From Octopus vulgaris (Eukaryota): DNA of 64,000 nucleotides. The notes under the pieces are model-generated. The model saw only the letters and a list, made by a program, of their open reading frames with translations, was not told the DNA's origin and made no database searches. The stretch is taken from assembly GCA_951406725.2 (NCBI GenBank), contig OX597818.1, positions 106,826,001 through 106,890,000 on the forward strand. Direction: 5' to 3'. The translations under genes were made by a program, and so were the position numbers. Below are positions 15,788 to 56,963 of this stretch, piece after piece. Position 1 is the stretch's first letter; the number at the start of each line of letters is the position of its first letter.

Positions 15788-16058
15788 ATTATTTACATTA
15801 GTTACATTTGACGGATATTTGTCCTCATCTTGTTTGTTGTTAATACAACATCTCGGCTGATATACTCTCCAGCCTTCATTAGGTGTCTTGCAGAAATTTC
15901 GAACCTGGGTTCTCATTCCTAAATTTCCTCAAGACGCCTGATGAAGGCTGGAGGGTATATCAGCCGAAATGTTGTGTTAACAACAAATTAGATGAGGACA
16001 AATATCCGTCAAATGTAAATAATATAAATAATTCCTCATCTCTTAAATATAGAACTGT
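15788..16058. mobile_element. Fold-back (inverted pseudo-LTR) Penelope-like mini element
   Basis: Diverged inverted arms ~15788-15899 / 15921-16032, 21-nt spacer, short unpaired tail to ~16058; hammerhead motif near the apex. Confidence 0.75.
15933..15978 (+). ncRNA. Minimal type I hammerhead ribozyme motif (slightly decayed)
   Basis: Stem I GACGC/GUGUU; core CUGAUGA 15938-15944; extra A; stem II GGCUG/CAGCC; GAAA 15966-15969; UGUU. Confidence 0.65.
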
Positions 16059-16064
16059 ATAAAT

Positions 16065-16300
16065 CCAAGAGTTTGAGATTTTTATTCACATACCTGGAAA
16101 CCCTAGCTGCCTACCGTGAAATATAAAATAATTTTTTTCAACTTATACTTTGATAGGGAAAAAATTCACAACCTTCCACCCCAATAAACCACTGTTGTTC
16201 CTGAAAGTTGTTTTTTTTTATATTCTCTATGAACTTTTACAGTTTCTATGGATTGCTTGAAACCCACTTTCTTCCTATACTTTAATCCTTGGATCTTACA
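16065..16300 (+). mobile_element. Dispersed repeat, probably a CR1/L2-like LINE 3' end
   Basis: Reverse-complement match to 40265-40480 (CTGCCTACCGTGAAATATAAAATAA; CACAACCTTCCACCCCAATAAACCACT). Confidence 0.6.
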
Positions 16301-17719
16301 TATACACATATAAATACACACACACTCGCTCATATATAGATTTTGATGCTTACAATTTCATATATGTGTGTACATATATATATATATTTATACAAGCCTA
16401 TGAAAATATATTTAACTATATGAATATATTATGTATGTATATATATATATATGTGTGTGTGTGTACAGTATGTATACTTACCTATCTCATTATCTCTTTC
16501 TCTCAATATAAATATGTATCTACACACATATATAGATACATGCAGATACATATATGTACATGTGTATGTGTAAGTGTACATACATATGCACACACACATA
16601 CATGCACACACATGCATGCACACATGCACACATGCACACACACACACATTATGTTTGTGTTGTTATGATATGGTTGTCTGTTCATCTGCGTGTTTATCAA
16701 TTCAGTGTGGAAGTTGAATGGATTATAATTAAACTAACTCTGAAACAGAAAATATATTTAAATTATAGATTATGTATTCAAAAGTTGAAAAATTCAGTCT
16801 TGCACAGCAAAGATAGTAAATTTCATAGAATGTAAGGCATATTTACCATTCTTTCTGAATAGAAATTACAAAATATTCAACCATTTTAGAATTTGATAAT
16901 TAGTGATATATATATATATATATATATATATATATAAATGAATGAAAGCTAATACAAAAAAAGTAAACCATCTGTTTTGTTCATTAAAAGGTAAAGTTAG
17001 TCGTGATAGTGCAACTATTATTTTTGTCTACAATCTCTGTTTCAGGATTAATCTTTCATTTTAAGTCTGTTGTTTTACAATAAAACAAGACATAGAAATG
17101 TAAAAATTAAAAATACAATGCAAAATATCGGTGATTTATATTTATATGTCCTTATCTTAAATAAGTTTTTTTTTGATTATTCATTGGGAAGCGAAAGGAG
17201 ATTTGAAGTGCATGACAGTTAAGTATTATGCTAAATATAATTATGGTTCCTATTGTTTTATTGTAGTTTTTGTATTTCTTTTCATAACTGGAATAAAGTA
17301 AAAATAGAAATAAAAATAAATAAATTCTACAAAATGAGAAATCTGTGGCATTCAAAGTTCAGTGGGTGACTAGTTTTTGTAAATTGAAAAGTAGGAAATT
17401 TATATTTTCTACAAAGTATAAAATATGGAAATTTGAACTTGGTATCAGAGTGTTGATTCAGTTTGGAAATTGTTATTTCAATAACTCCACTTTGGAATCA
17501 ATCCACAAAAATATGAATTGCATTCATTAATTGGGAAAGAATATTTTTAGAATTAATAAAAATATTATTGTGTTTTTGCAAAGCAAGTTTGTAATATGTC
17601 AAAGACACTAGAATACTTTAGTATTGGAATGGCTTTGAACAATTTGTTGTATTACTCACTAACAAAACTCCTGTGCTTGATGCTCTGCTGTGGTCAGTCT
17701 AGGATTTTTTTTTCACCAA

Positions 17720-17942
17720 TACCACCTGACTGGCCCTTGTGTCGGTGGCACATAAAAGCACCCACTACATTTTCAGAGTGGTTGGTTTTAGCAAGGGCAT
17801 CCAGCTGTAGAAACTCTGCCAGATCAGATTAGAGCCTGGTGCTGCCATCTGGCTCGGCAGTCCTCAGTCAAATCGTCCAACCCATGCTAGCATGGAAGGC
17901 GGACGTTAAATGATGATGATGATGATGATGATGATGATGATG
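17720..17942 (+). mobile_element. RTE 3' tail with (GAT)n
   Basis: Same tail consensus. Confidence 0.85.
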
Positions 17943-18214
17943 TTTCTTTAACCTATGTCTACACAGTAAAATGAGTTTTTTGGTTACTATGTAATAATAT
18001 TTATTTAAATAAATCCCTTATTCTACTTTGCTAGATTATATGATGATGTAGCCATATGATGGTGATGATGATTGTGGTGGTGGTGCTACTGGTGAGGAGG
18101 AGGATGAGGAAAAGGAAGAAGAGGTGAATAGTGATGATATCTGCTTCCCCATACTTGCAAAACATCTGATGATCAATAAGATATGAAAGATGACAATGAT
18201 TAACAAGAAAGAAA

Positions 18215-19560
18215 GGAACATCGTGGCATTCCAAAGACACGTCTTATAGAATCAGGAACACTAAATGAGAGAGAGAGAGAGAGACTATAGCTTTTCTTGG
18301 CCACAGAAAAAGGTTTAGTTGAGAGCAGGGAGCATAGTGAGGATTTTGCTGCCAGAAATGCATGGCTGAAGACAGTGGTGCAGTCCAACGAGAGAGGAAA
18401 GGAATGGATTCTCTCGACTTTGACTTAACTTATGTCTGATGGACTTGTCAACCTTGGTGTGTGATTGGCAGAATAACTAACAACGAGCACGGATCATTTA
18501 AGCTTGCACATTCTATGGGCTGTTTGTCACAAACATTTACATCCAGAATAAAACCCAGCACAAAGATTCTCAGAAGCATTCTTCGTTCTAAGTCCTGGCA
18601 CCAACTTGGCCTGACGCTCTCAAGACTGAAGAAATGTACTTGGGATTAGATTCTCTCATGATACTGACTATGGCAGGGATCACACTCTTGTTTGATGCAG
18701 AATAAAATGCTAACCAAAGAAAATACTCATTATGGCACTCATTGATGCCAAAATGACAATCAGGCAAAATAGCAAGGATAATTGAGCTACCAGAGAATGC
18801 TCTGCCTGCAGACTCCACTGAAAGAGATGCACAGATGAGATGGCATTCTCTCAGAGACACTACACATAACCATAGCAGAAGCCTTGAAGACACGGAATTG
18901 GTATGGAGCAATCTTGAATAAGATTGTCATTACTGTCATTAGGGCAGGGCATGTTGCACTACTTGAACATCAAGACTACTGCACCCAGGTACCCTCATAT
19001 ATTTCTTTATTGCCCACAGAGGGCTAAACACAGAGGGGACAAACAAGGACAGACAAACAGATTAAGTCGGTTACATCGACCCCAGTATGTAACTGGTACT
19101 TAACTTATTAACCCCAAAAGGATGAAAGGCAAAGTCGACCTCGGCAGAATTTGAACACAGAACGTAATAGCAGCCGAAATACCGCTAAGCACTTCGCCCG
19201 ACATGCTAACGATTCTGCCAGCTTGCCACCTCCAGGTACCCTTATAAGCACTAAAATCAGCAAGGAGGTTCAGAAAACAGCCAGATGCTATTCTAATGAC
19301 TGATTTTTACAGTTTTGCGAAAATATTCAATTAACAATGAGATCTTGTCTTACACCTAAATAGCTCACCTCTTCACCCTACTTCAATAATGATGTCCTTA
19401 CTAGCGGGCTATGAACATCATGCATTAGATGGATGGACTCAAAAGACCTACTATATGGGGAACTGACCTCTATCTAGAGAACACAGGGTTGATCCCATCT
19501 TAATCTCAAAGACATTTGCATGAGAGGTATGAAATTTATTAATTGGATCTGGAATTAGCC
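18215..19560 (+). mobile_element. Old RTE/BovB-like LINE fragments split by a SINE
   Basis: RSKSWHQLGLTLSR (endonuclease-end-like) and later LDGWTQKTYYMG / DLLYGEL-like C-terminal motifs; many stops. Confidence 0.55.
19000..19231 (-). mobile_element. tRNA-derived SINE with Meta-domain-like centre; 15-bp TSD
   Basis: Minus strand GGTGGCAAGCTGGCAGAATCGTTAGCA ... GTTCAAATTC ... GACTTTGCCTTTCATCCTTTTGGGG; TSD CCAGGTACCCT(C/T)ATA at 18985-18999 and 19232-19246. Confidence 0.88.
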
Positions 19561-55752: not shown

Positions 55753-55802
55753 TTTGTCAAAATATTTTCGTCGCTAAAATCCGCGACCTGTTCACTGACA
55801 AA
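55753..55802 (-). ncRNA. Identical G3-C8 hammerhead variant on the opposite strand
   Basis: Follows from the perfect palindrome centred on 55812. Confidence 0.65.
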
Positions 55803-55821
55803 AATCCGTGCAGCACGGATT

Positions 55822-55871
55822 TTTGTCAGTGAACAGGTCGCGGATTTTAGCGACGAAAATATTTTGACAAA
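55822..55871 (+). ncRNA. Minimal type I hammerhead variant with G3-C8 core pair
   Basis: Stem I UUUGUCA/UGACAAA; core GUGAACA 55829-55835; extra G; stem II GUCGC/GCGAC; GAAA 55855-55858; palindromic stem III AAUAUU; predicted cut after U55864. Confidence 0.65.
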
Positions 55872-55982
55872 TTAAACTTAAATGTTGAAGTGAATCGAAC
55901 GGCTTTTGTGTGTTTCTTAAATGGCTTATAAACACCTTCCACGCTGCAATTGTTATATATATATATATATATATATATATAT

Positions 55983-56334
55983 TTGAGTAGTTGAATGAAT
56001 TATCTTATTATGGATAATTCGAATTAACTGATACCTGGGTTGCAAATTCACATCAGAAAAAACACGGTTGATGTTACGTGCCTAGGGCATAGATTACGTG
56101 CTTTCGTGTGGAAATTTGTATGTTTATTTTAAAAATATAAATATATGAAAGAATGGAGCTGAACAACGAATTAACAAAATTCCTTTATTTTCGACATATG
56201 TTTCGAAGGCTGCATATTCCTAATTGCGAAGGAATAAATAATTAGGAATATGCAGCCTTCGAAACATATGTCGAAAATAAAGGAATTTTGTTAATTCGTC
56301 GTTCAGCTCCATTCTTTCATATATTTATATTTTT
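55983..56334. mobile_element. Fold-back PLE-type mini element B in (TA)n
   Basis: 95-bp arms 56131-56225 / 56240-56334 (1 mismatch), 14-nt loop, tail 55983-56130; carries the hammerhead 3' half GAAAC-AUAU-GUC (56261-56272). Confidence 0.85.
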
Positions 56335-56454
56335 TATATATATATATATATATATATATATATATATATATATATACATATATATATATATATATATATA
56401 TATATATATATATATATATATATATATATGTATATATATTATATATATATATAT

Positions 56455-56963
56455 ACATATAAATTTATATATAGAGGGCATTATACATACATGCCAGAAG
56501 GCATTATATATACATGCCAAACGCTAAGAGGGACAATTAGTCATTTCTACCAAAAATATTACTAATCCCACCGAATGCAATTTTTCAAAGTAAGACATTT
56601 AAAAAAATATAGACCTGTATCACAGTGATTTCATACTTACGTACTCATCAGCAGGCCTGAATGAGTACGTAAGTATGAAATCACTGTGATACAGGTCTAT
56701 ATTTTTTTAAATGTCTTACTTTGAAAAATTGCATTCGGTGGGATTAGTAATATTTTTGGTAGAAATGACTAATTGTCCCTCTTAGCGTTTGGCATGTATA
56801 TATAATGCCTTCTGGCATGTATGTATAATGCCCTCTATATATAAATTAATATGTTCAATAAGAAATAATTATTTTCGAAATTTTTTCTCTTATGAGGTTT
56901 TTACGCTATCTACCTGACAATTTCTTGTTAAGTTTTCCTTATTAAGTAGTTGTCCTTAATTGC
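56455..56963. mobile_element. Fold-back PLE-type mini element C in (TA)n
   Basis: Perfect 187-bp arms 56462-56648 / 56661-56847, 12-nt apex, tail 56855-56963. Confidence 0.88.
56611..56658 (-). ncRNA. Type I hammerhead ribozyme motif
   Basis: Minus strand AGGCCUG-CUGAUGA-GUAC-GUAA-GUAU-GAAA-UCACUGUGA-UA|CAGGUCU: 7-bp stem I, canonical core, GNRA-capped stem II, AUA cleavage triplet. Confidence 0.85.

Follow-up and report, generated by a model that had tools for sequence, protein, structure and literature searches.

A stretch of 64,000 nucleotides (nt) of the Octopus vulgaris genome (assembly GCA_951406725.2, contig OX597818.1, positions 106,826,001 to 106,890,000; hereafter the window) holds six short hairpin elements, which have no primary sequence in common and share one layout, with a hammerhead ribozyme region at or near the tip. 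The locus raises the question of how such elements arise: as mobile hairpins in their own right, as products of their ribozyme, or in some other way. The first-pass annotation of the window had read them as derivatives of Penelope-like elements (PLEs) without open reading frames (ORFs), with an inversion point set by the ribozyme region, and had proposed that they may form a mobilisable class. Our analysis upholds the PLE connection and leads to a different account of the hairpin itself: the six are probably the shortest members of six families carrying PLE insertion marks, each hairpin being made anew by priming from both strands of the target. The geometry first described was found for all six, namely two inverted arms with loops of 1-21 nt between them and an unpaired tail on one side (Table 1), and (TA)n adjoins five of the six, element 1 being the exception.

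Each hairpin belongs to a separate dispersed repeat family (F1 to F6, in the order of the elements), which also has longer or un-hairpinned copies; solo, long and tandem copies exist beside the hairpins. That these are PLE derivatives is borne out by the two fixed 3' ends of the families, by their target duplications and by ORFs for a reverse transcriptase (RT) and a GIY-YIG endonuclease upstream of F5 and of a relative of F2, two cases in which the description as ORF-less is consequently untrue. Upstream of F5 come the 3' untranslated region (UTR), then a GIY-YIG-like domain (match E 0.012, below the cut-off; nearest clusters RVT_1/HTH_animal, score 0.95), an asparagine-rich insert and the RT. 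The insert, between RT and endonuclease (7814-8785 of locus L212 and 7919-8818 of locus L211), resembles those of rotifer Penelope in the parts of that paper compared (PMC3846280). The F2 relative, 74-78% identical over ribozyme and tail, lies directly 3' of a GIY-YIG ORF and has its own inverted copy. The long form of F3 (at least 2.3 kb; L297 6473-9782 and L331) is ORF-less and microsatellite-rich, and 40 of 40 scored copies are identical across 186 bp; judged by its sequence, this non-autonomous PLE is very young. A long form of F4 also exists, with 493 candidates for its upstream part. A PLE ORF was looked for in the F3 long form and in the F4 upstream region, and none was present there. 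F6 is a tandem repeat with a 481-bp unit, no ORF and one hammerhead per unit, the arrays listed having up to 8 units; its insertions combine a partial array in inverted orientation, whose end is at unit position 203, with a direct one whose end is at 325, and the two may meet at any point.

Two coding PLEs outside the window were also observed. F7, a seventh family, encodes an RT and a C-terminal endonuclease (L213 3904-5372, minus strand, and L244), and its hairpin minis (tips in L251 and L317) begin at an AG right before the ribozyme. The second (L333 445-2787, plus strand) has an intact 781-amino-acid ORF with RT, Zn-finger and GIY-YIG domains and many equal-scoring copies in the genome, where first-look candidates for RT/GIY-YIG loci numbered 6,136, and was probably active recently; its 3' UTR contains CCAAT-like repeats, a TATA box and, by eye, a hammerhead-like motif with a U3-A8 core. 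The order of its motifs would fit the Neptune type, which has been tied to microsatellite targets (PMC8557442). Its 3' end matched none of the six families, and BLASTP of the F5 RT against the 781-amino-acid ORF was not significant (E 0.4). Weak alignments of F5 with L335 and of F7 with L338 (z 3.6 and 3.9) were dismissed as AT-rich noise.

The marks of insertion are the same from family to family. All six families and F7 have two discrete 3' ends, the tail being optional, and relative to the ribozyme core these are at about +92/+118 in F1, about +98-113/+158 in F2, +61/+130 in F3, +124/+179 in F4, +151/+280 in F5, +194/+316 in F6 and +71/+137 in F7. Target duplications in F4 are non-repetitive and 10-14 bp long (11/29 loci without (TA)n on both flanks), while those in F1 measure 7-16 bp (11/30 loci). 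They flank the entire hairpin or the solo copy, and a duplication around an entire hairpin implies that each is a single insertion event. In F3 and F6, (TA)n was present at both sides of 30/30 and 13/15 insertions, respectively; one F3 tally was discarded, the reference itself containing the microsatellite. Copies inverted head to head, with variable 5' truncation, were met across families, and the targets were AT-rich or (TA)n. An inverted truncated copy, a direct terminal repeat and an optional tail make up the published PLE layout (PMC3846280, PMC8557442). Moreover, the PLE enzyme of Anolis has been reported to start at two sites within the RNA, one at either end of the tail, to extend both strands and to prefer uncleaved RNA (PMC11167929). 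The two 3' ends of each octopus family match these two RT start sites, and it can be argued that the RNA integrated here was likewise uncleaved.

Whether hairpins move as hairpins can be judged from their junctions. When the genome was searched with an F4 arm alone, an inverted arm adjoined it in 16 of 30 loci, with 15 distinct junctions, the window junction recurring once among the 15 other hairpins; the remaining 14 loci had no adjacent inverted arm. Such diversity, together with the solo and long copies, speaks against the suggested class of mobilisable hairpin units, in which master hairpins would be transcribed whole and re-inserted. Unit mobility would explain why the window hairpin was matched end to end in 40/40 scored F4 and 40/40 scored F3 matches, and why a single junction recurs with fixed orientation in 20/40 F4 and 14/30 F3 hairpins. 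These samples were selected with a hairpin query, the F3 junction sample included, and are thus biased towards the shared junction; F3 hairpins beyond that sample (C9 x2, C19 x2) all have other junctions, and those of F6 are spread across the 481-bp unit. Subfamily variants were identical in both arms (15/15 in F3 at one site, 14 loci in F4 at one site), the common junction was found on several subfamily backgrounds, and the variants are symmetric on one and the same junction. In addition, the end without a tail has a constant position, that of the internal start, unlike what a truncated transcript of a whole hairpin would show. Differences between arms also bear on the matter: at six loci (L018, L020, L022, L108, L114 and L118) the F4 arms are discordant in ribozyme loop II and share most other variants, as inherited hairpins might, yet the loop II variants differ by locus and occur in either arm. 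The discordance may reflect two RNA templates or patch conversion. On balance, we consider movement as a unit very unlikely and favour hairpins that are produced afresh by every insertion.

The same junctions bear on the self-priming that had been suggested. The 5' reach of the inverted arm exceeded that of the direct arm in several copies, and the reverse held in others, so that either arm may contain 5' sequence that its partner lacks. Simple self-priming is thus not supported, since a single cDNA folding back on itself could not yield this pattern.

Two further explanations were set against these marks. Miniature inverted-repeat transposable elements (MITEs) or foldback DNA transposons also have long inverted repeats, small size, high copy number and target duplications; the octopus hairpins have a one-sided tail, duplications of variable length (as within F4), many solo arms, 5' truncation, tandem arrays and continuity with RT ORFs, which leaves such an origin extremely improbable. 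We give just as little credit to a fold-back artefact of the assembly. It might be suspected from arms that are 99-100% complementary, and no short-read contig was seen to bridge the window's own tips. Target duplications, on the other hand, flank whole hairpins, the arms end at fixed, family-specific sites, older hairpins have diverged arms (74-94%), and short-read contigs from three studies contain F4-type joints, head to head.

If hairpins are formed at insertion, the position of the tip should tell what ends the copying. For this purpose, 119 arm 5' ends that were not query-selected were compiled, a set which may contain a few window elements seen in flanks and from which arms of less than about 40 nt are missing. 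As the first-pass annotation would have it, the ends favour the ribozyme region, 58/119 falling between -30 (relative to the core) and the cut site; they do not favour the cut itself, since only 6/119 are within 3 nt of it, the number expected from a flat spread over that zone. The zone holds 19/27 of the ends in F7, 11/16 in F4 and 8/11 in F3. Pile-ups before the core were seen at 5-6 nt in F3, at 17-27 nt in F4, partly at about -81 in F5 and at the head (-152) in F1, and nowhere in F6; most ends of F1 and F6, and in part of F5, are far upstream. The tip thus likely marks where copying ended, and not the site of ribozyme cleavage.

The ribozyme could nevertheless determine the tip, by cleavage or by stalling the RT as a folded structure and offering snap-back stems. 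Besides the concentration of ends just described, tips exactly on the palindromic helix III were found in element 2, at locus L158 and in one F5 copy of the random sample described below. In F3 and F4, in contrast, the ends are upstream of helix I and leave the ribozyme intact, ribozyme-less Naiad PLEs form the same inverted layout (PMC8557442), and catalytic ribozyme mutants left insertion in vitro unchanged (PMC11167929). With these points and the missing pile-up at the cut site, a ribozyme that sets the tip seems rather doubtful overall. Cleavage as the cause is unlikely, while a contribution by stalling or microhomology is possible, and helix III palindromes plausibly serve as ready-made microhomology for tips.

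What then fixes the ends in F3 and F4? In long parents, a TATA box is found upstream of the 5'-end cluster, at -29 in F3, -30 in F4 and -28 in F5 (TATAAAG, imperfect); by a strict motif, this applies to 2/6 families against a background of 212/8,299 (p about 0.009). For F3 and F4, the tip would be at a start with TATA and initiator, slightly 5' of the ribozyme. Furthermore, a G precedes +1 in 12/15 short F4 arms, in contrast to the C or T at this place in six arms of long parents. The copying of capped RNA is known to leave an untemplated G (PMC9341517), and the extra G in F4 suggests that a capped RNA was the template. Short-read contigs from three studies have loose ends at the F4 start (55809) and at its no-tail end (55669). 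Of the 15 joints listed, 8 enter at 55809, head to head.

From the observed ends, junctions, duplications, parents and motifs, we infer the following course of events. A promoter in the terminal repeat would make a short RNA with an uncleaved ribozyme and a tail, or a truncated longer RNA would serve instead; the source would be a head of the RNA polymerase III (Pol III) type in F1 and tandem read-through in F6. A PLE protein, a presumed one in the case of F1, F3, F4 and F6, would bind this RNA, and both target strands would be nicked 7-16 bp apart. One strand would serve as primer at the end of the tail, its counterpart at the internal start site, and the two cDNAs would grow towards the 5' end of the RNA. 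Short microhomology, often at small natural palindromes such as that of helix III, would then allow their 3' ends to be linked head to head. The tip would correspond, in F3 and F4, to the capped end of a short RNA that begins 6-24 nt 5' of the ribozyme core and, in F1, F2, F5 and F6, to a variable truncation point. The closeness of the ribozyme to the tip would accordingly be due mainly to its own position, close to the start site and no more than 120-320 nt from the 3' end.

Several observations weigh against this course of events. There is no TATA box at the proper distance in F2 (by eye) or F6, and F7 has only TATAGA. The extra G was seen in only 6/14 short arms of F3 and in 0/2 F7 hairpins, and about 6 of the 12 cases in F4 could derive from the partner arm or the target duplication. 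None of the sequencing runs listed is on record as RNA, and run X9, which was only presumed to be RNA, does not count as evidence of expression. No coding partner for F1, F3, F4 or F6 was found among the 13 GIY-YIG loci fetched of the 150 listed. The common F4 junction of the hairpin-query sample has the same orientation relative to the tail each time, which would not be expected of two symmetric priming events, and loop II differs between the arms of six F4 hairpins; an ordered second priming and the occasional use of two RNAs could be behind these two features. Finally, the 5' ends also look like splice acceptors, with a pyrimidine tract and YAG in F3 and F4, where a CTAAY branch-like motif is present too, and with YAG at the end cluster in F2, F6 and F7 as well. 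An intron ending at helix I has been published for a PLE of D. virilis (PMC4209133; also PMC2377424, in the part compared). The fixed ends of F3 and F4 might accordingly come from an intron acceptor before the ribozyme, in spliced or acceptor-cut and recapped RNA, and not from a promoter. The short copies, however, have no constant exon-1 sequence upstream and retain the AG, and the F5 cluster is at CTCATT, with no AG and with its TATAAAG; we hold a splice-based origin to be unlikely and prefer transcription starts for F3 and F4.

Within the window, the hammerheads are less uniform than described, which was complete in four elements and as a 3' half in a fifth. With a descriptor of the minimal type I motif allowing 3-8 covariation, and with the cores and helix I of the F2 and F5 parents identified by eye, the ribozyme is complete in three elements (1, 4 and 6), atypical in element 3 and partial in two; conversely, six of six elements, and not five, touch a ribozyme region. 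The hammerhead of element 1 has its predicted cut after 15973 and is 17 nt from the junction. Element 4 carries two complete hammerheads with a G3-C8 core (cores at 55829, plus strand, and 55795, minus strand), both arms beginning near the putative transcription start, some 20 nt 5' of them. In element 6, the complete hammerhead is in the inverted arm only (core 56651, minus strand). In element 3, the core boxes are present (49470-49476), but helix II opens with a T-T pair, and helix I, which is not contiguous in F3, is displaced by 5 nt; the motif fails the descriptor and is predicted to be weak or inactive as a ribozyme. Of the parental ribozyme, elements 2 and 5 retain only 3' parts, their tips being inside it, at the palindromic helix III in element 2 and within loop II in element 5, which keeps the 3' half. 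As the arms are on opposite strands, neither would find a dimer partner in the other within one transcript. An Rfam scan of the window gave no hammerhead family among the 150 of 305 matches listed, which were microsatellite-driven miRNA matches only.

Table 1. Positions of the hairpin elements and related features in the window (arm coordinates are those of the paired segments)
Feature	Position	Strand	Description
Element 1 (F1)	15788..16058	+	Copy of a ~270-nt repeat, inserted with inversion and 5' truncation; inverted arm 15788-15922, direct arm with tail 15921-16058
Element 1, arms	15788-15899/15921-16032		112 nt, 90% identity, loop 21
Element 1, hammerhead	15938..15980	+	Complete minimal type I; core CTGATGA at 15938
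Element 2 (F2)	30527..30690	-	Tail arm 30527-30640 (sense -), short arm 30641-30690
Element 2, arms	30572-30639/30641-30708		68 nt (some TA included), 84% identity, loop 1
Seventh insertion	40469..40829	+	Older, inverted; arm identity 74%, long-helix-II hammerhead core 40714
Element 3 (F3)	49402..49600	+	Arms begin at the putative transcription start of the longer parent
Element 3, arms	49402-49464/49469-49531		63 nt, 100% identity, loop 4
(TA)n-rich tract	55516..57025		Elements 4, 5 and 6 side by side
Element 4 (F4)	55615..55954	-	Tail arm 55615-55811 (sense -), no-tail arm 55813-55954 (sense +)
Element 4, arms	55670-55811/55813-55954		142 nt, 100% identity, loop 1
Element 5 (F5)	55983..56346	-	3' end of a coding PLE, junction 56226-56239
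Element 5, arms	56114-56225/56240-56351		112 nt, 94% identity, loop 14
Element 6 (F6)	56455..56963	+	Shortest form of the 481-bp tandem ORF-less hammerhead unit
Element 6, arms	56455-56648/56661-56854		194 nt, 99% identity, loop 12

Element 1 has an 8-bp target duplication, ATCCAAGA, at 15779-15786 and 16063-16070, and lacks the tRNA-like head of its family. The tip of element 2 is common to 2/30 F2 loci, the rest having various tips. Element 3 has (TA)n at either side. The arms of element 6 end at unit position 203-205 (inverted) and near 325 (direct). The tract with elements 4 to 6 is an insertion hot spot; at locus L010, F2-like, F4 and F6 copies are similarly stacked in one (TA)n tract. 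The seventh insertion of Table 1, which the first-pass annotation did not include, has the same layout without a tight tip, its junction being asymmetric and about 76 nt long, and relatives were found at two further loci. Other features of the window include a solo long-helix-II hammerhead with a short tail up to (TA/TG)n (36843-36960; five diverged relatives at other loci) and an older palindrome with 54-bp arms and a 13-nt loop (23979-24099), in which the hammerhead descriptor called none and whose family is palindromic elsewhere too. An 880-bp element at 35722-36602, with 207-bp terminal inverted repeats (84%) and copies elsewhere, looks, in contrast to the hairpins, like a true terminal-inverted-repeat transposon derivative.

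The abundance of such hairpins was estimated from a random sample of the genome (1.16 Mb in 22 blocks), in which palindromes were collected if they were non-simple, had arms of 35 bp or more and had a loop no longer than 30 nt. There were 25, and in 8 of them, by family assignment, the tip was at or in a hammerhead or hammerhead-like motif (four F3, two F7, one F5 and one of a further family). The strict descriptor alone recognised 1/25, compared with 37/20,000 random positions, because the motifs of F3 and F7 are degenerate; it had 34 matches in the 1.16 Mb and 6-9 in shuffles. At least two more palindromes came from hammerhead-bearing repeats with the tip far from the ribozyme, one being an F6 copy with its tip in the tail region and the other having cores 205 nt out in both arms. 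Extrapolation to the whole genome gives about 19,000 hairpins with a hammerhead at the tip (8,000-38,000). The density in the window is about 10 times that of the random sample, because elements 4-6 occupy a single (TA)n tract. First-look candidates in the 2.8-Gb genome, which are lower bounds, numbered at least 892 for F1, 391 for F2, 150 for F3, 1,410 for F4, 2,613 for F5 and 903 for F6, and Poisson ranges reach copy numbers of the order of 10^4 per family. A further hairpin family, with 213-bp arms and, just 2 nt away from the tip, a hammerhead core of the U3-A8 type, was noted at locus L253 (block position 24141).

Family F1, with about 11 loci in the random sample, deserves separate treatment. 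Its unit of about 270 nt consists of a tRNA-like head of about 75 nt, an (AAT)n linker, the hammerhead and the tail, with no ORF; 10 arms have their 5' ends close together, at -152 to -144, and 7/7 heads in the random sample were joined to the ribozyme part. By eye, the head has words like the A and B boxes, for which the consensus of these boxes was used, at tRNA spacing, and 8/10 copies have no T4 run, which would be an internal Pol III terminator. With relaxed settings, ARAGORN recognised 3/13 heads against 0/260 shuffles, and with a stricter setting 0/13; at default it found 0/9 loci, there was no Rfam tRNA match, and phage blastn returned nothing useful. No partner for the 3' end of F1 was present among the PLE ORF loci examined, which were the GIY-YIG loci mentioned above. 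With its PLE insertion marks, F1 is a probable short interspersed element (SINE) driven by a PLE. The SINE-like repeats SMalpha and Sjalpha of schistosomes also combine a type I hammerhead with a Pol III-type head 5' of it; SMalpha is described as tandem, with cleavage stripping the promoter from single copies, whereas F1 is dispersed with head and intact ribozyme together (PMC6765202, PMC8490949). Inverted copies, two 3' ends and duplications of 7-16 bp also set F1 apart from SMalpha, as far as the descriptions compared go.

For F6, the nearest relatives are non-LTR (long terminal repeat) retrozymes and non-autonomous PLE tandems, which are also ORF-less with one type I hammerhead per unit (PMC7229834), and with which Chlamydomonas MRC1 (PMC8557442) was grouped here. 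The F6 arrays also bear PLE insertion marks, with their inverted partial array and two fixed 3' ends, and would provide direct structural support for the mobilisation of retrozymes by PLEs. A recent preprint on retrozymes argued from distribution and phylogeny in the parts compared (bioRxiv 10.64898/2026.07.22.740005); 'tail' does not occur in it, and 'inverted' occurs once, in the title of a reference.

In L1 twin priming, the second strand of the target is said to prime a second cDNA. There the inverted part comes from a different segment of the RNA, whereas both arms of the octopus hairpins come from the same segment, with two fixed starts. The extra G of the hairpins recalls the cap-derived untemplated G that L1 acquires on full-length capped RNA (PMC9341517). 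With endonuclease PLEs, the octopus elements share the head-to-head inverted copy, the one-sided tail, microsatellite targets, the hammerhead in the terminal repeat, and TATA and initiator in the pseudo-LTR (PMC3846280, PMC8557442); target duplications of about 8-10 bp are given in the rotifer paper (PMC3846280), and hammerhead pairs on opposite strands, 100-700 bp apart, were noted in Schistosoma in 2014 (PMC4209133). The layout and the ribozyme of the hairpins are thus known PLE features, and the layout is not new. The differences are that the ORF is skipped and two terminal repeats meet directly, that tails are 25-130 nt against 30-40 in the published PLEs compared, and that a start-site cluster with an extra G, seen here, was not found in the portions of the PLE literature compared. 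In vitro, Poseidon_Ac cuts AT-rich DNA, extends both strands and uses uncleaved RNA (PMC11167929); the joining of opposed cDNAs does not feature in the part of that work compared, and the genomic junction series is indirect evidence of it.

The main texts of the literature searched gave no account of PLE mini-hairpins as a class, of PLE minis defined by a start site or of tRNA SINEs mobilised by PLEs, and the cephalopod PLE hammerheads in them were limited to 235 Rfam matches in squid. The main text of a 2026 paper on octopus repeats does not mention hammerheads, ribozymes or palindromes. The O. vulgaris repeat library has 893 unclassified SINE families (PMC13282606), and our six families may be catalogued there, in Repbase or in Dfam. 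What looks new are the short RNAs, from promoter to tail, as abundant templates, and the tRNA-headed family with PLE insertion marks.

How PLE tandem and inverted structures form and what the hammerhead does are named as open questions in the PLE literature (PMC8557442). The octopus families offer thousands of two-arm junctions each, with known start points, so that double priming, the use of one or two RNA templates and the role of the ribozyme can be tested from sequence alone. We see an even chance that PLE terminal repeats act as mini-genes here, and that their short capped RNAs, like those of a tRNA-headed SINE with a captured PLE ribozyme and tail, are copied by PLE enzymes from both target strands at once, into about 20,000 hairpins whose junctions record how the inverted PLE structure is made. 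If so, a PLE and not a long interspersed element would drive the SINE F1, which may extend the SINE concept to PLE partners. F6 gives structural support to the movement of retrozymes by PLE enzymes. Elements of this kind are likely mis-annotated as MITEs, miRNA hairpins or unclassified SINEs. Cephalopods are known for heavy RNA editing, and the hairpins, if transcribed through, would give rise to perfectly paired double-stranded RNA in large amounts.

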